A stretch of 64,000 nt of DNA from Escherichia phage TH09, in sequence record MT446387.1; one strand, written 5' to 3'. The notes below the pieces were generated by a model. The model was not told where the DNA came from. It did not search any database and saw only the letters and a list, made by a program, of their open reading frames with translations. Positions 28,046 through 49,720 of the stretch are shown here, in pieces. Position 1 is the first letter of the stretch; every line of letters starts with the position of its first letter. The translations under genes and the position numbers were made by a program.

Positions 28046-28050
28046 GTTGA

Positions 28051-28074
28051 GGACTCCTTCGGGAGTCCTTTTTT
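28051..28074 (+). terminator. Intrinsic terminator
   Basis: GGACUCC-UUCG-GGAGUCC followed by UUUUUU. Confidence 0.85.
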
Positions 28075-28922: not shown

Positions 28923-28962
28923 AATAAAACAGGGGCTTCGGCCCCTTACTGAGGAAAATACT

Positions 28963-32663: not shown

Positions 32664-32848
32664 AAGCTTACTTAGAAACAATTGTCATTGCTCAAAAAGA
32701 AGGTGGAGATGTTTCTACTTCTGTATCACAAGTCATTCTCGAATTTGTAGATGCATACGCTTATAATAAATTTACAGAAACATTTGATGCCTATGAAAAA
32801 GGACCAAAGTTTGAAATATATCGTACTCTCTTACCACTAGATTACTAA
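32660..32848 (+). CDS. Hypothetical protein (62 aa)
   Basis: ORF track; ATGA overlap with the ligase stop. Confidence 0.5.
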   Translation: MKAYLETIVIAQKEGGDVSTSVSQVILEFVDAYAYNKFTETFDAYEKGPKFEIYRTLLPLDY

Positions 32849-32864
32849 AGGCCTTCGGGCCTTT
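32847..32864 (+). terminator. Terminator-like hairpin
   Basis: AAAGGCC-uucg-GGCCUUU followed by AAUUUU. Confidence 0.55.
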
Positions 32865-32869
32865 AATTT

Positions 32870-34997: not shown

Positions 34998-37055
34998 ATG
35001 GAACTTATTACAGAATTATTTGACGGCGCTTCGGCGCCGGTTGTTAACTTAAATCCTAAGCATAAAATACCGCAAATTTTTGCTATTCAAGCCGGCGAAG
35101 AAAGTGTGCTTCCTGGATTTAGATTTTGTACATACACCTCTGGCGGTGATACAAATAAAAACGTTAAGCCAGGCGATAAAATGATGCATATCGTAATGAT
35201 AGGTGTCAATGAGAAACTATCGCTCGTTAAACTTAAAAACTTGGGTGGAAATCCAATTGGTGTCATTAATGCGGTTTTTGATACTGCTCTTCAAACAATG
35301 AAACAGTATAAAATTGATGCATGCTTATTCCGCGTACTAAAGAGTAAAACAAATGGCGCAGCTCGTCAAATGCAAGTTATTGCTGACCGTTTAGTACGTA
35401 CTAAAGGAGCAGGTCGATATGCTCTTTTAAAGGAAATCTGGGATTACGATAAAAAGTATGCATATATTATGGTTTACCGTAAAAATGCCAATTTAGAAGA
35501 CATTCCAGGTGTACCTCCTATTTCAACTGAGTTATTCACAAAAGTTGAATCAAAGGTTGGTGATGTTTATGTAGACGTTAAAACAGGTAATGCTGTTCCT
35601 AAAGCTGTTGCTGTTGCTGCTTCTATTGCCTTAGAAAATGATAAGCGCACGGATCAAGCTGTTATTCAGAAAACTAAAATTAGTCGTCGATTAGCAGCAC
35701 AAGCTCAATATTCTACTGTTGATGCTTCACTTCAGGGTGATAGCTTCGCTGCTAAGAAATATCAAGAGTTTGAATCTAAAGTTCCGGTATATAAAGCAGA
35801 AGGACCAATGAACTCCGGGGTTATCCAGATTGGTTCAAACTTTAACAAAGGAGCTATCGGTGGTATGAGAAGTGCTTCTCGTTTTAAATCTAATGATTAT
35901 GAACTAGAAAGTTTCCGAAATCATATTGCATTAGCCCATGCGCGTTTACGTGATCCATCTATCAAGTTGCAGAGCGATATAACATATCAAGGTTCTCAAG
36001 AATATTTAAAGAATAAAGAATTCTTTGATTATAAAACTGATAAAATTTTAAGCGATCTTGCTGACATTAATATTTCTAATAGCTTTGATGTTATTAAGAA
36101 AATTATCAATGATTTAGTTAAAGGTTCTAAAGCTACACCAGATGAAAAGACAGCTATTATTCAATTTGTCATGAATGGCATTTATAAATTGATTAATGAA
36201 TCTGCCGCTCAGGCATATGAATACGCGAGCACCGAAGTAACTCCAAAAGGATTAACTCAAGCTGAATCTGATGTAATTGAAGATTATTGTGCAGATTCAT
36301 ATGTTGAAATGAACTCGTTCCTTTTGGGTAAACCAGATTCTACCCGCGAAGAATATATGGAACGAGCTATTAAACATATTGAGACGCTTGATTCTGCATT
36401 CGCTAAAGGTTCAGTTCTTCCTCCAGGAACTACACTTTACCGTGGACAAGAAGTTACATTTAAAACTTTGCGTCATAACATTGAAAACAAAATGTTCTAT
36501 TTCAAGAACTTCGTATCCACATCGCTTAAACCAAATATCTTCGGTGAGCATGGTAAAAACTATATGGCCTTAGATGATTCCGGCGCAGTATTTTCTGGTG
36601 AAGGAGAAGGTTCCGTTGATGCAGAAGATTTGATGCATATGGGTAGTCATTCTACATATGCTAGTGAAGATGCCGAAACTAGCGTGGGTATGGTAATTAA
36701 AGGAGCTGAGCGAATCAAAGTTATCGTTCCAGGTCATTTATCAGGATTTCCATCAGAAGCTGAAGTTATTCTACCACGTGGAATTTTACTGAAGATTAAT
36801 AAAGTAAGTACGTACTTTATGAAAGAAACTGCTTATAACAAGTATCTAATCGAAGGTACAATCGTTCCTCCTTCTGAACAATTAGAGGAATCAGTATATG
36901 ATGGCGACCATTTGATGGAAACTGGTGAAGTTCGTCCAATGACTGGATTTAATCAATTCCTTGTCGAAGAATCAAAAGAAGAGGAAAACGAAGTTTCTCA
37001 AATCTTAGCTTCTTTGGTTAACATTAACGGAATGTCTAAAAAGTTCAAAATGTAG
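34998..37055 (+). CDS. Alt-like mono-ADP-ribosyltransferase, copy 2 (685 aa), tandem paralog
   Basis: Same N-terminal 200 aa architecture as copy 1 (MELITELFDG...), diverged middle, same ART motifs LYRGQ, FVSTSL, EAEVIL and DGDHLMETGEV. Confidence 0.8.
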   Translation: MELITELFDGASAPVVNLNPKHKIPQIFAIQAGEESVLPGFRFCTYTSGGDTNKNVKPGDKMMHIVMIGVNEKLSLVKLKNLGGNPIGVINAVFDTALQTMKQYKIDACLFRVLKSKTNGAARQMQVIADRLVRTKGAGRYALLKEIWDYDKKYAYIMVYRKNANLEDIPGVPPISTELFTKVESKVGDVYVDVKTGNAVPKAVAVAASIALENDKRTDQAVIQKTKISRRLAAQAQYSTVDASLQGDSFAAKKYQEFESKVPVYKAEGPMNSGVIQIGSNFNKGAIGGMRSASRFKSNDYELESFRNHIALAHARLRDPSIKLQSDITYQGSQEYLKNKEFFDYKTDKILSDLADINISNSFDVIKKIINDLVKGSKATPDEKTAIIQFVMNGIYKLINESAAQAYEYASTEVTPKGLTQAESDVIEDYCADSYVEMNSFLLGKPDSTREEYMERAIKHIETLDSAFAKGSVLPPGTTLYRGQEVTFKTLRHNIENKMFYFKNFVSTSLKPNIFGEHGKNYMALDDSGAVFSGEGEGSVDAEDLMHMGSHSTYASEDAETSVGMVIKGAERIKVIVPGHLSGFPSEAEVILPRGILLKINKVSTYFMKETAYNKYLIEGTIVPPSEQLEESVYDGDHLMETGEVRPMTGFNQFLVEESKEEENEVSQILASLVNINGMSKKFKM

Positions 37056-45481: not shown

Positions 45482-45649
45482 ATGTCAGATAAGATTTGTG
45501 TTGTCTGTAAAACTCCAATCGATTCTGCATTGGTTGTTGAAACAGACAAAGGTCCTGTACATCCTGGGCCTTGCTATAATTACATTAAAGAACTACCAGT
45601 TTCAGAAAGTTCGGAAGAACAATTAAATGAAACACAACTTTTGCTATAG
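45482..45649 (+). CDS. Small Cys-containing protein (55 aa)
   Basis: Not in ORF track (<60 aa); ATG with SD gaggag; MSDKICVVCKTPIDS...HPGPCYNYIKELP; CxxC plus one distal Cys. Confidence 0.45.
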   Translation: MSDKICVVCKTPIDSALVVETDKGPVHPGPCYNYIKELPVSESSEEQLNETQLLL

Positions 45650-45704
45650 TGTGACCTTTAGTCTATAGTTTTGGCCCTTCCTTTTTGGTTGGGCCTTTTT
45701 TAAT

Positions 45705-45935
45705 TTAAAAGCTTTCTTCTACTTCATCGTCTGAATCTTCTAATTCAGCTCTTTTTCCTGCCAAAGCATCTCTCACAGAGATGTCATCAGTATCTTTTAA
45801 TTCAGTTTCTTTAACTCTTTTCTTGTAATAAGCTTCAAGTTCTTCTAAACCTTCTAATGTTTGACAAGAGGCAATTTTACCCATAAATTCATCAATAGAA
45901 GCTTCATAAAGAAATTGTTTAAATCCTAGTAACAT
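45705..45935 (-). CDS. uvsW.1: UvsW.1 acidic small protein (76 aa)
   Basis: ATG at 45935 with SD ggag (track start 45947 is TTG); 76 aa as T4 UvsW.1. Confidence 0.75.
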   Translation of the reverse strand: MLLGFKQFLYEASIDEFMGKIASCQTLEGLEELEAYYKKRVKETELKDTDDISVRDALAGKRAELEDSDDEVEESF

Positions 45936-45960
45936 CTTTTTCTCCAAAGGGCCGAAGCCC

Positions 45961-47472
45961 TTATAAATTAACTGTTTTCATTACGTAATTAAATTTTTCA
46001 TCTGCGTAGCGCTGAATACGATCAATGCCGTGTTTTAAAAGATAGTTCAAATGAACGTATTTCTTTTTCGTATTAGCAGATTTTGGCTTAACACCACAAT
46101 CATCGATGAGGTCCCAGACTGTTGCTATTGTCTTAGAACCATGCTTACGTAATACACGACCGATTGTTTGTAATACAATGATTTTTGATTTAACGCCGTG
46201 CGCTAAAACAACATGATGCAGATTTTTAACTGAAATACCAGTAGAAAATACACCATAACTCGCTACTATAATTATTCCTTTACCATTTTCAGCTAAGGTT
46301 TTCATTATATTGCGGGTTTCAGTATCAACTTCCCCTGATACGTAATAAACTTTATCGTATTCATTTTTAATTAAATCGAAAATAGCTTTACCGTGCGATA
46401 CGTGTTTAAACATGACAAAAGCGTTTTCATCTTTTTGTGCAAGCTTAATAGCTAATTTAGCGATCCATTTATTTCTTTTACTGAGCCCAGTAATAATTTT
46501 TATTTCTTCTTGGTAAGTTTTTCCCTTTAATTTAGTAGTGAACTCATCGGGATAGCGAAGAAAAATACTATTAATTTTTAACTCAGTTACTTGTCCATCT
46601 TCCATTAATTTAGAGGTCGTTACTGGCTTAAATATTTCACCAAACATTCCAACATACTGCATGATATTGGCTTTGCCGTCACGTAATGAACCTGATAGAC
46701 CAAATTTAAACATGCAGTTATTTAAACCTGATATGATAGATGAAATACTTTTTCCTGTAGCAAGATGGCATTCATCATTCATCATCATTCCAAACTGTGA
46801 GAACCATTCTTTCGGCTGTTTTACTACAGTTTGCCATGTACCAACAACGACTGGTGCATCATTTTTATATTTATCATCTTTTGATGCTCCACCGCCGATT
46901 TTCTTTATCATTGCATGACTGAATAAACGATAGTCAACAAAGTCATCAGCCATCTGAGTTGTCAGAGCAGTTGTTGGAACAATGATAAGAATTTTACCTT
47001 CATAATTTTCCAAATAATACCGAGCAAGCAAAGCTTGAATTAAAGATTTACCTGCAGATGTTGGAAGATTAAGAATTCTACGACGATTAACTAATCCTTC
47101 GAACACTGCATCTTTTTGATACCAGTGCGGTTCAATTCTTTTATTTCCTGAATAGATTTCTAATTTAGAAAGCCATTCATCAAAATCTTTTCTTGATAAT
47201 TCTTCTTTTTCGTTAATTTGCGGGTCAATCCAGGCTTTATAGCCAAAGTTATCACAGAACTTTTTAATTTGCCCGACCAAGCCGAATGGAAGAAGGCGAT
47301 TATAATCTAAAAGACGGATTCGTCCATCCCAGTGGCCATATCTGTACTTCGGATTAAAACGATACCCATCAGCTTCAAAGCTAAAGAAATCACGGAGTTC
47401 ATGAAATGTACTTTCTTCACAATCAATTCTCACGTGACTAAAATCATAAAAATGTACTTTAATGTCAGTCAT
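45961..47472 (-). CDS. uvsW: UvsW DNA/RNA helicase (503 aa)
   Basis: Walker A SAGKS and DECH helicase motifs; size as originally annotated T4 UvsW. Confidence 0.9.
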   Translation of the reverse strand: MTDIKVHFYDFSHVRIDCEESTFHELRDFFSFEADGYRFNPKYRYGHWDGRIRLLDYNRLLPFGLVGQIKKFCDNFGYKAWIDPQINEKEELSRKDFDEWLSKLEIYSGNKRIEPHWYQKDAVFEGLVNRRRILNLPTSAGKSLIQALLARYYLENYEGKILIIVPTTALTTQMADDFVDYRLFSHAMIKKIGGGASKDDKYKNDAPVVVGTWQTVVKQPKEWFSQFGMMMNDECHLATGKSISSIISGLNNCMFKFGLSGSLRDGKANIMQYVGMFGEIFKPVTTSKLMEDGQVTELKINSIFLRYPDEFTTKLKGKTYQEEIKIITGLSKRNKWIAKLAIKLAQKDENAFVMFKHVSHGKAIFDLIKNEYDKVYYVSGEVDTETRNIMKTLAENGKGIIIVASYGVFSTGISVKNLHHVVLAHGVKSKIIVLQTIGRVLRKHGSKTIATVWDLIDDCGVKPKSANTKKKYVHLNYLLKHGIDRIQRYADEKFNYVMKTVNL

Positions 47473-47501
47473 GTCTAAATACCATGTAATAAATATATCT
47501 A

Positions 47502-47509
47502 TATTTATA
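47502..47509 (-). promoter_or_regulatory. Late promoter TATAAATA for uvsW
   Basis: plus tatttata about 30 nt upstream of the uvsW ATG. Confidence 0.65.
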
Positions 47510-47522
47510 CTGAGGAAATATT

Positions 47523-49631: not shown

Positions 49632-49636
49632 TCATA

Positions 49637-49652
49637 AGGGGCTTCGGCCCCT
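49637..49652 (+). terminator. Terminator after hoc
   Basis: AGGGGC-uucg-GCCCCU followed by a U-rich tract. Confidence 0.75.
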
Positions 49653-49720
49653 TTCTTCATTTTGAAAGCACACAAAACACACTCAGAAAATGATGTATAT
49701 AATGGCACCAACTCGATAAC

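Follow-up and report, generated by a model that had tools for sequence, protein, structure and literature searches.

The uvsW and uvsW.1 gene pair of phage T4 is the closest described counterpart of the locus analysed here. An engineered UvsW-UvsW.1 fusion is reportedly an active helicase. The separate T4 proteins are reported by Nelson & Benkovic (2007) and by Kerr and colleagues (2007) to associate, with UvsW.1 damping the strand annealing of UvsW.

T4 UvsW, first deposited as a single 587-aa protein, was initially taken to be one long polypeptide until resequencing split uvsW into two ORFs (PMC1524935). A late promoter drives uvsW (PMC3016281), and the gene is late both in RNA and in protein (PMC9697503 supplement). 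T4 mRNA was also the first source of CUUCGG hairpins (Tuerk et al. 1988, recounted in PMC4371310), and Nolan et al. described a bidirectional terminator downstream of uvsW.1 that is conserved in six genomes (PMC1524935).

With these systems we compared the uvsW-uvsW.1 junction of Escherichia phage TH09 (MT446387.1), contained in a 64,000-nt stretch of DNA referred to below as the window. The data as a whole are best explained by two separate cistrons, uvsW and uvsW.1, carried on what would be one late transcript, a reading that rests on the sequence and on comparison with other phages and to which we assign a probability of roughly 0.93. The split between the two genes is genuine and universal, and in this phage the junction is neither a frameshift site nor an error.

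The uvsW and uvsW.1 reading frames

The pair is encoded on the minus strand, where the following features were placed.

47502..47509, minus strand: T4-type late promoter box TATAAATA, an exact match ~30 nt 5' of the uvsW ATG
45961..47472, minus strand: uvsW, SF2 RNA-DNA/DNA-DNA helicase (ORF reading, PDB 2OCA, Pfam, identity with JLBYU22)
45947..45962, minus strand: C(UUCG)G-tetraloop hairpin AAGGGC-UUCG-GCCCUU (sequence, fold prediction)
45942..45945, minus strand: Shine-Dalgarno (SD) sequence GGAG of uvsW.1, read in the sequence 6 nt 5' of the ATG
45705..45935, minus strand: uvsW.1, acidic protein of 76 aa (ORF reading, 2JPN, Pfam PF11637, PHROG 1143)

The uvsW frame runs for 503 aa from an ATG at 47472 to a TAA at 45963-45961. 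Its product matches T4 UvsW (PDB 2OCA) end to end, aligning over residues 3-503 with the same C-terminus, ...KTVNL. The Pfam matches (UvsW_N, ResIII/DEAD, and Helicase_C) describe a UvsW N-terminal domain with two RecA-like SF2 motor domains. The protein differs from T4 UvsW by a handful of residues and by one extra N-terminal residue (MTD... vs MD...), and the region of the window with uvsW is 100% identical to Tequatrovirus phage JLBYU22. T4 additionally has the homing-endonuclease gene segE between inh and uvsW, which the window phage lacks.

After a 25-nt spacer (45960-45936), uvsW.1 begins at ATG 45935 and ends at a TAA (45707-45705); since (45963-45935) mod 3 = 1, its frame is +1 relative to uvsW. 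The original prediction had uvsW ending at 45961 and a 76-aa acidic ORF starting 25 nt downstream in the +1 frame, and these coordinates are confirmed on the minus strand. It had also described the genes as separated by an in-frame stop, which is a misnomer: the codon is the ordinary uvsW stop, and uvsW.1 is out of frame with uvsW. The encoded protein (8.73 kDa, pI 4.27, 21 D/E vs 10 K/R) is identical to the T4 NMR structure 2JPN at 75 of 76 residues (E = 3.8e-43), the one difference being G4 for E4. It also matches the Pfam PF11637 'UvsW.1 domain' (E = 1.5e-30; 105.5 bits, cut-off 25) and PHROG 1143. As is characteristic of the UvsW.1 family, the gene is a separate small ORF right after uvsW with its own start signals, GGAG-N6-ATG. 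An alternative start for the small ORF, TTG 45947 (80 aa), is used by the mechanical ORF list and by the JLBYU22 record; ATG 45935, with GGAG 6 nt upstream, is the start in T4T and in the 2JPN construct. The GGAG has a predicted pairing probability of 0.5-0.7, through weak pairs with the final uvsW codons. Because the minus strand contains no second TATAAATA between the box at 47502..47509 and uvsW.1, the small gene has no late promoter of its own.

Alignment to corrected T4, a check that the original prediction had proposed, gave a junction in T4T (HM137666) identical base-for-base to that of the window. Gene order, 25-nt spacer, hairpin, SD, and start are all the same in corrected T4 (T4T; 2OCA, 2JPN).

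A fused CDS in the T4 reference record

The T4 records NC_000866.4 and AF158101.6 (UniProt P20703) represent this locus too (98% mean identity across a 382-column junction alignment) and annotate a single 1764-nt uvsW CDS; in T4T, uvsW and uvsW.1 are annotated separately. At this one site NC_000866.4 reads TTA-ATAAGC (TTA-ATAAGCTTCGGCCC), where the window, T4T (HM137666), and T4 'wild' (KJ477684) have TTATAAGGGC (TTATAAGGGCTTCGGCCC). Both reference records are a base short in the hairpin's 5' arm, which also carries misreads; the uvsW stop is thereby lost and the frames are fused. The resulting 587-aa RefSeq CDS reads ...KTVNL-ISFGPLEKK-MLLEFK..., in which a 9-residue linker, ISFGPLEKK, joins the two proteins.

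An error in a compression-prone GC hairpin was among the explanations originally offered for the junction, and this part of the prediction fits the 5' arm in NC_000866.4 and AF158101.6. Applied to the window, it would mean that the hairpin was misread here and that uvsW is really a single 587-aa ORF, as the T4 reference has it. The single CDS of the two reference records is in line with such an error, as is its retention in a 2022 omics study (PMC9697503), and the hairpin is predicted to form in ssDNA as well (-5.9 kcal/mol, z = -2.4), which makes gel compression plausible. The record counts nonetheless point the other way. Among 498 phage records with the junction, the 100-nt version of the window is present at ≥99% identity in 380, whereas for the fused version the only records to reach that threshold are AF158101.6 and NC_000866.4, both of them copies of the old T4 composite. 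Exact junction matches in IMG/VR number four for the window version and zero for the fused one. Both resequenced T4 strains, T4T and 'wild', have the window version, and two ORFs were confirmed by resequencing (PMC1524935). Moreover, the crystal structure 2OCA stops at ...KTVNL, UvsW.1 was solved on its own (2JPN), and the hairpin is abolished in the fused version (-2.7 vs -9.5 kcal/mol). Together, the 498-record counts and the resequenced T4 strains rule out a sequence error in the window, the probability of which we regard as negligible.

The 587-aa 'UvsW' is thus fictitious, an old misread of a stable GC hairpin in the T4 sequence. The original prediction suggested, with some hesitation, that T4 UvsW had later been reported as a single longer polypeptide that includes UvsW.1; the history runs in the opposite direction, with 587 aa first and two ORFs afterwards (PMC1524935, T4T, 2OCA/2JPN). 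As publications of 2004-2007 already reported both the two genes and the corrected sequence, the arrangement is nothing new to biology. It does call for practical caution, as T4 NC_000866.4 and UniProt P20703 still have the fused 587-aa CDS. Because the T4 reference keeps this CDS, annotation pipelines call the 76-aa ORF 'DNA helicase'. The 2022 T4 transcriptome/proteome study (PMC9697503) counts uvsW and uvsW.1 as one, and comparison against T4 RefSeq will bring up the same apparent discrepancy again.

Comparative evidence and the frameshift question

We analysed 54 IMG/VR loci, with UvsW.1 identities of 49-100%. In all 54, uvsW.1 forms an ORF of its own that has its own start, and in 51 a helicase ORF of ~500 aa ends at or just before it. 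The remaining cases are two loci (L006 and L007) in which the ORF adjoining uvsW.1 is an inserted homing-endonuclease gene, and one (L058) in which the upstream ORF was not identified. Some junctions are ATGA or TAATG overlaps, others have spacers of 6-10 nt, and others again have longer ones in which unrelated hairpins occur; the frame of uvsW.1 relative to uvsW is 0, +1, or +2. In phages G8, W143, and PYPS2T, a 230-aa homing-endonuclease ORF, recognised by a NUMOD3 match and, by eye, an HNH-like motif, separates the uvsW stop from the hairpin. Coupled junctions elsewhere among T4-like phages (ATGA, TAATG, TGAGGAAnnATG) preserve the gene pair and its order and, as here, hold the downstream start within the terminating ribosome's reach. 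They differ in having stop and start either overlapping or separated by 6-10 nt, with no hairpin, while the Tequatrovirus junction has a 25-nt spacer filled by one.

The original prediction allowed for a genuine split in this phage. Genuine it is, but it is not special to this phage, being present in every T4-like locus examined. For the same reason, a recent gene fission peculiar to the window phage and its close relatives, from an ancestor with a single fused helicase, is scarcely credible. UvsW.1 always adjoins uvsW on the downstream side, as a former C-terminal domain would, and in many records the small ORF is called 'DNA helicase'. That name, however, goes back to the erroneous T4 entry P20703, and two ORFs are present at all of the loci, from those of Tequatrovirus to those of Aeromonas-phage-like genomes (~230 kb, 49-56% UvsW.1 identity). 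The fused form was found nowhere: the 75 close homologues of UvsW.1 are all 52-96 aa long, and an exhaustive profile search of 1.84 billion representative proteins found no UvsW.1 domain at the C-terminus of a helicase-length protein.

A frameshift site, another possibility raised in the original prediction, fares no better. Were the junction a programmed +1 ribosomal frameshift site stimulated by the hairpin, a fused UvsW-UvsW.1 would be made besides or instead of the two proteins. uvsW.1 does lie in the +1 frame, which is open for 13 codons 5' of its ATG, and a +1 shift in the last five uvsW codons (AAA ACA GUU AAU UUA) or at the stop would produce the fusion. We also read AUG-AAA-A as allowing weak +1 re-pairing of tRNA-Lys, and the engineered fusion is, as noted above, reportedly active. 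Several features argue against this proposal. An RF2-type motif is absent, with neither CUU-UGA-C nor an SD-like sequence 3 nt 5' of the shift site; the uvsW end, ...AAA ACA GUU AAU UUA UAA G, has no re-pairing codon at the stop and so lacks the slippery codon and SD-like stimulator of the prfB/RF2 type. The hairpin begins in the stop codon, 22 nt past the only candidate slip site, and is misplaced for a downstream stimulator. uvsW.1 has a canonical GGAG-N6-AUG. The conserved frame of prfB/RF2-type sites is also missing: relatives show relative frames 0, +1, and +2, each uvsW.1 has its own start, and their stop-start overlaps are typical of coupled separate cistrons. In G8-type phages the pair is split by the 690-nt endonuclease gene, so that no fusion is possible there, and natural fusions number zero among the 1.84 billion representative proteins. 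We therefore consider programmed frameshifting highly improbable; frameshift and read-through were rejected on the lack of slippery motifs, of a conserved frame relation, and of natural fusions.

There is likewise only a very small chance that a minor +1 shift in the last uvsW codons (e.g. AUG-AAA-A), by ribosomes slowed at the CUUCGG hairpin, yields a low-abundance fusion of 68 kDa. If it did, this UvsW-UvsW.1 fusion would have an altered helicase/annealing balance and would exist beside both separate proteins. Such low-level fusion could apply solely to Tequatrovirus phages without the endonuclease insertion. A UvsW-UvsW.1 fusion is neither conserved nor required.

The junction hairpin and transcription signals

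The core of the hairpin, GGGC-UUCG-GCCC, spans 45960-45949, extending to 45962-45947 (16 nt) once the flanking A-U pairs are added. The original prediction gave these outer coordinates exactly; the loop it quoted, cgaa, is that of the plus strand, and the mRNA loop is UUCG. Its placement of the hairpin between the genes holds insofar as the structure directly follows uvsW, but the hairpin is not strictly intergenic because its base includes both A's of the uvsW TAA. The 16-mer has a predicted dG of -8.8 kcal/mol, and within 161 nt of context its core pairs have predicted pairing probabilities of 0.97-1.0. The local hairpin alone stands out; the 71-nt region as a whole folds no better than shuffles (z = -0.54).

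The junction hairpin is beyond chance. CTTCGG occurs 36 times in the window as compared with 13.9 +/- 3.7 in shuffles, none of 100 shuffles reaching 36, and at eight of the sites the stem is perfect and ≥6 bp long, where 0.34 are expected from the window's own background. Seven of these eight stems start -3 to +13 nt past a same-strand stop. With its UUCG loop, closing C-G pair, and G+C-rich stem on the coding (minus) strand, its intercistronic position, and its over-represented set in the window, the junction hairpin is a member of the T4 class of CUUCGG hairpins at cistron ends; like the T4 C(UUCG)G hairpins, it sits on the sense strand just past a cistron. An Rfam scan of 45600-46100 gave only chance-level matches, far under gathering scores. 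The hairpin sequence is invariant across Tequatrovirus loci and so shows no covariation. Other lineages carry no homologous hairpin, and most other T4-like lineages have no hairpin at this junction at all.

A further stem-loop lies beyond uvsW.1.

45673..45695, strand not assigned: stem-loop GGCCC..CC.....GG..GGGCC, bidirectional terminator (fold z = -3.3; M77695 annotation; PMC1524935)

This structure separates uvsW.1 from the convergent gene uvsY.-2, a T-run is present at 45696-45701 (plus strand), and T4 record M77695 labels the stem-loop after uvsW.1 'terminator'. A consensus terminator scan flagged neither the junction hairpin nor this stem-loop, the apparent loop of which exceeds the length that the scan allows.

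The junction hairpin might itself be an intrinsic terminator that ends the uvsW message, with uvsW.1 expressed from elsewhere or hardly at all. Its stem is GC-rich and immediately 3' of the stop codon, U-runs come after sister CUUCGG hairpins in the window (e.g. 28049-28070 and 3536-3515), and some other lineages (L032, L033, L045, L048) have a hairpin with a U-rich tail at the same junction. We nevertheless judge termination here unlikely. Just three U's follow the junction stem, leading straight into the SD; the tail, UUUGGAGA, falls short of the ≥5 U of 8 that follow the G+C-rich stem of a rho-independent terminator, and this missing U-run is the ground on which the terminator reading is rejected. 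The scan result is in agreement, and a proper terminator is present after uvsW.1. No late-promoter box lies between the genes, so that uvsW.1 relies on read-through, and the strong conservation of UvsW.1 (29 invariant columns) indicates that it must be expressed.

With two separate cistrons as the preferred reading, ribosomes would end the 503-aa helicase at UAA, and UvsW.1 (76 aa) would be initiated independently at its own GGAG/AUG, 25 nt further on and in the other frame. The hairpin most likely protects the 3' end of the uvsW message, or weakly pauses or attenuates transcription. It may also gate how frequently uvsW.1 is translated, because a terminating ribosome must melt the hairpin, the base of which touches the SD; gating of this kind would replace the direct ATGA/TAATG stop-start coupling of most other T4-like phages. 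Several sister CUUCGG hairpins in the window have 7-9-bp stems and terminator-like U-rich tails, unlike the junction hairpin with its 6-bp stem, UUU tail, and position 1 nt from the SD. The hairpin at 28931-28946 resembles the junction hairpin in this respect.

Gene organization at the uvsW-uvsW.1 junction

In phage TH09 the UvsW helicase and UvsW.1 are encoded by two adjacent genes, arranged as follows.

Features of the uvsW-uvsW.1 region
47509-47502, minus strand: T4 late-promoter box TATAAATA
47472 (ATG) to 45963-45961 (TAA), minus strand: uvsW helicase ORF, 503 aa, read from sequence
45962-45947, minus strand: predicted stem-loop AAGGGC-UUCG-GCCCUU, flanking A-U pairs included
45935 (ATG) to 45705 (end), minus strand: uvsW.1 ORF, 76 aa, read from sequence
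45695-45673: strong predicted stem-loop at the boundary of uvsW.1 and convergent uvsY.-2

After the uvsW stop codon the minus strand reads GGGCTTCGGCCC-TTT-GGAG-AAAAAG-ATG, a 25-nt spacer that ends in canonical initiation signals (GGAG-N6-AUG). The original prediction described this junction accurately, hairpin coordinates (45947-45962) included, except that its 'in-frame stop' was a loose phrase, as uvsW.1 is shifted by +1 from the helicase frame. No second late-promoter box was found from the 47509-47502 box down to uvsW.1. T4 uvsW is a late gene (PMC3016281), with both RNA and protein late in T4 omics data (PMC9697503), and its helicase unwinds replication-origin R-loops and branched DNA (PMC3016281).

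Escherichia phage JLBYU22, a Tequatrovirus, matches this region at 100% identity. In that record (L001 3154-3396) the small ORF is labeled 'RNA-DNA and DNA-DNA helicase ATPase' and begins at a TTG in or beside the hairpin (window 45936-45947), giving 80 aa. The ATG 12 nt downstream is the better start, having GGAG-N6 spacing and agreeing with the resequenced T4 strain T4T and the T4 UvsW.1 NMR structure (2JPN).

The 503-aa protein and the T4 UvsW crystal structure (2OCA) align end to end, both stopping at ...KTVNL. The 76-aa protein (computed mass 8.73 kDa, pI 4.27) differs from 2JPN at 1 of 76 residues and matches the dedicated Pfam 'UvsW.1 domain' (PF11637) at E = 1.5e-30. As reportedly found by Nelson & Benkovic in 2007 and Kerr et al. 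in 2007, UvsW.1 is a binding partner of UvsW that inhibits strand annealing by the helicase, and an engineered fusion keeps helicase activity and loses annealing; UvsW.1 itself is said to be a small helical bundle similar to a RecQ-helicase module that binds nucleic acids.

The C-terminus of UvsW.1 is an acidic run capped by a hydrophobic residue (...DSDDEVEESF, window 45705-45740). The last F and E74 are invariant across 19 aligned homologues (alignment A3), and most of the distant standalone homologues listed (P0076-P0092) likewise finish with an acidic stretch and then F, I, L or V. Bacterial SSB has a similar C-terminal tip (DDDIPF) and T4 gp32 a similar acidic tail, an analogy suggesting that the UvsW.1 tail may dock in a pocket of the SSB-tail type, which might lie on UvsW and be contested by gp32. 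One 96-aa homologue, from Enterobacteria phage vB_EcoM_IME339 (P0001), carries a 20-residue internal tandem duplication in which CQTLEGLEELEAYYKKRVK is repeated; the repeat may be genuine or may have arisen in assembly.

The T4 reference record

The original prediction took a single longer T4 UvsW, without certainty, to be a later correction. The history is the opposite: as of Nolan et al. 2006 (PMC1524935), uvsW.1 had 'only recently' been recognised, two ORFs were present in all five other T4-like genomes, and crystallography showed the UvsW.1 region to be absent from UvsW. The fused reading is that of NC_000866.4, which annotates a single 1764-nt uvsW CDS (L002 1178-2941; junction ~2684-2700) with the note 'sequence discrepancies were found for this section'. 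Its 587-aa translation links UvsW and UvsW.1 by ISFGPLEKK. Aligned to the window, NC_000866.4 reads TTA-ATAAGCTTCGGCCC against TTATAAGGGCTTCGGCCC, a discrepancy of one base fewer plus misreads in the 5' GGGC arm of the hairpin. Alignment to corrected T4 bears out the window, which is matched exactly by the independently resequenced strains T4T (HM137666) and 'wild' (KJ477684); in T4T, uvsW (502 aa) and uvsW.1 (76 aa) are two annotated genes.

Searching with 100 nt that span the junction gave 498 phage records, 380 of them at least 99% identical to the window. The fused-version query was at least 99% identical solely to AF158101.6 and NC_000866.4, which are one composite sequence; all other records fell below 99%, and the 23 others listed, three further T4 records among them, were at 97% over a 100-nt span. 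Among IMG/VR contigs, the junction 25-mer occurred in four in its window version and in none in its reference version. These counts rule out a sequencing error in the window.

The misread version is predicted to lose the hairpin (-2.7 vs -9.5 kcal/mol), which is also predicted to fold as single-stranded DNA, and we therefore infer that the T4 error was a gel-compression artefact of the original sequencing. The suspected error in a compression-prone GC hairpin thus fails for the window and holds for the T4 reference record, with its misreads in the GGGC arm. The anomaly is the T4 record's, not TH09's, and the practical value is a warning on NC_000866.4 and P20703. T4 transcriptome and proteome work published in 2022 takes the fused CDS (112677-114440, P20703), so UvsW.1 is invisible there as a separate gene (PMC9697503). 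The same uncorrected reference accounts for the 76-aa ORF being called 'DNA helicase' or 'ATP-dependent DNA helicase UvsW' in many records.

Separate genes across T4-like phages

We fetched 55 UvsW.1-encoding loci (49-100% identity) and analysed 54, omitting L010, whose upstream flank is cut off. Each of the 54 has a distinct uvsW.1 ORF that begins at a start codon of its own. A helicase ORF of ~500 aa ends immediately before or overlaps that start in 51; in L006 and L007 an inserted homing-endonuclease gene adjoins uvsW.1, with uvsW upstream of it, and in L058 the upstream ORF is 315 aa and not assigned as uvsW.

Junction types in the 54 loci (some start codons re-read by eye)
4-nt stop-start overlap (ATGA; TTGA/GTGA in L053, L059): 15 loci
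TAATG overlap: 8 loci
6-10-nt spacer, SD abutting the stop codon (incl. L020, L025): 16 loci
T4-type 25-nt spacer with CUUCGG hairpin: 5 loci
Longer spacer with unrelated hairpin (L032, L033, L043, L045, L047, L048, L060): 7 loci
Other: 3 loci (L052, extra ~117-aa ORF; L036, GTG start over stop; L058)

In L052, a distant T4-like genome, the ~117-aa ORF lies in a 352-nt gap (2148-2500) and looks hydrophobic and membrane-protein-like.

Protein searches agree. All 75 close UvsW.1 homologues among 5.8 billion proteins are 52-96 aa, and a profile search run exhaustively over 1.84 billion representatives gave 36 matches, mostly small proteins, none of them helicase-length with a C-terminal UvsW.1 domain. 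A 260-301-aa group (P0094, P0095, P0097, P0099, P0101) has an N-terminal UvsW.1 domain, a charged linker and a ~180-aa C-terminal domain, so the domain is naturally fused, yet to another partner and at the other end. In P0094, one of three scanned, the C-terminal domain weakly resembles cytidylyltransferase-like nucleotidyltransferases (E = 0.0017, short of the Pfam cut-off).

The original prediction also considered a frameshift site. The +1 frame is open for just 13 codons upstream of the uvsW.1 ATG, and the window junction holds no RF2-like slippery motif. Among relatives the frame relation varies by lineage (0, +1 or +2) and is not conserved. Without slippery motif, conserved frame or helicase-UvsW.1 fusion among the proteins searched, programmed frameshifting is not supported.

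In the Tequatroviruses vB_EcoM_G8 (L006 1783-2475), W143 (L066) and PYPS2T (L067), a 230-aa homing-endonuclease ORF, with NUMOD3 repeats (Pfam) and an HNH-like motif (by eye), is inserted exactly at the boundary of uvsW stop and CUUCGG hairpin, making a fused product impossible in these phages. The separate ORFs, lack of helicase-UvsW.1 fusions in the searches, endonuclease insertions, missing slippery motif and uvsW.1's own GGAG/AUG together indicate, at the level of sequence, that the split is genuine, ancient and universal. The predicted genuine split is thus upheld by the 54 loci and the protein searches, though not as peculiar to 'this phage', since uvsW.1 is separate in all 54; the junction is the ordinary published arrangement.

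The endonuclease ORF reuses the final ~19 nt of uvsW (AAAACAGTyAATTTATAA) as its 3' end. The ~150 nt of uvsW before the reused end are recoded, with far lower identity than the remaining gene, as would be expected for a cleavage-resistant target site. The GIY-YIG homing-endonuclease gene segE, between inh and uvsW in T4 (L002 558-1175), is absent here (window 47473-47522); relatives carry segE, the uvsW/hairpin-boundary endonuclease, both or neither.

The CUUCGG hairpin

The base of the junction hairpin includes the final two A's of the uvsW stop codon. Its predicted energy is -8.8 kcal/mol (16-mer) and its core pairing probability 0.97-1.0 (161-nt context); GGAG is predicted to pair weakly, about half the time, with the last uvsW codons. 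The hairpin belongs to the known C(UUCG)G class, first noticed in T4 mRNA (PMC4371310), for which Rfam holds no family. The 64-kb window contains 36 copies of CTTCGG (13.9 +/- 3.7 in shuffles), eight of them within perfect stems of 6 bp or more (0.34 expected), and CTTCGG is the commonest loop of the window's 470 four-loop hairpins with such stems.

Sister CUUCGG hairpins in the window
3536-3515, minus strand: perfect stem
28049-28070, plus strand: perfect stem
28931-28946, plus strand: an ATG with GAGGA lies 16 nt further on, as for uvsW.1
32846-32865, plus strand: perfect stem
35024-35039, plus strand: inside a long ORF (34998-37055), close to its start
49636-49653, plus strand: perfect stem
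52597-52578, minus strand: perfect stem

All seven sisters have perfect 6-9-bp stems, and six start no more than 13 nt from the stop codon of an ORF on the same strand; over all eight stems, seven start -3 to +13 nt after such a stop, one of them coming after a 521-aa ORF (54176-52611). Several sisters look terminator-like with U-rich tails, whereas the uvsW hairpin has a tail of only UUU, then the SD, and was not flagged in a terminator scan. It could act as a 3' barrier or weak pause ending the uvsW cistron. Because the stop codon lies within the stem, the terminating ribosome would have to unwind it, and the extended base would touch the SD; together these may allow the hairpin to gate uvsW.1 initiation, perhaps standing in for the direct stop-start coupling of most other T4-like phages.
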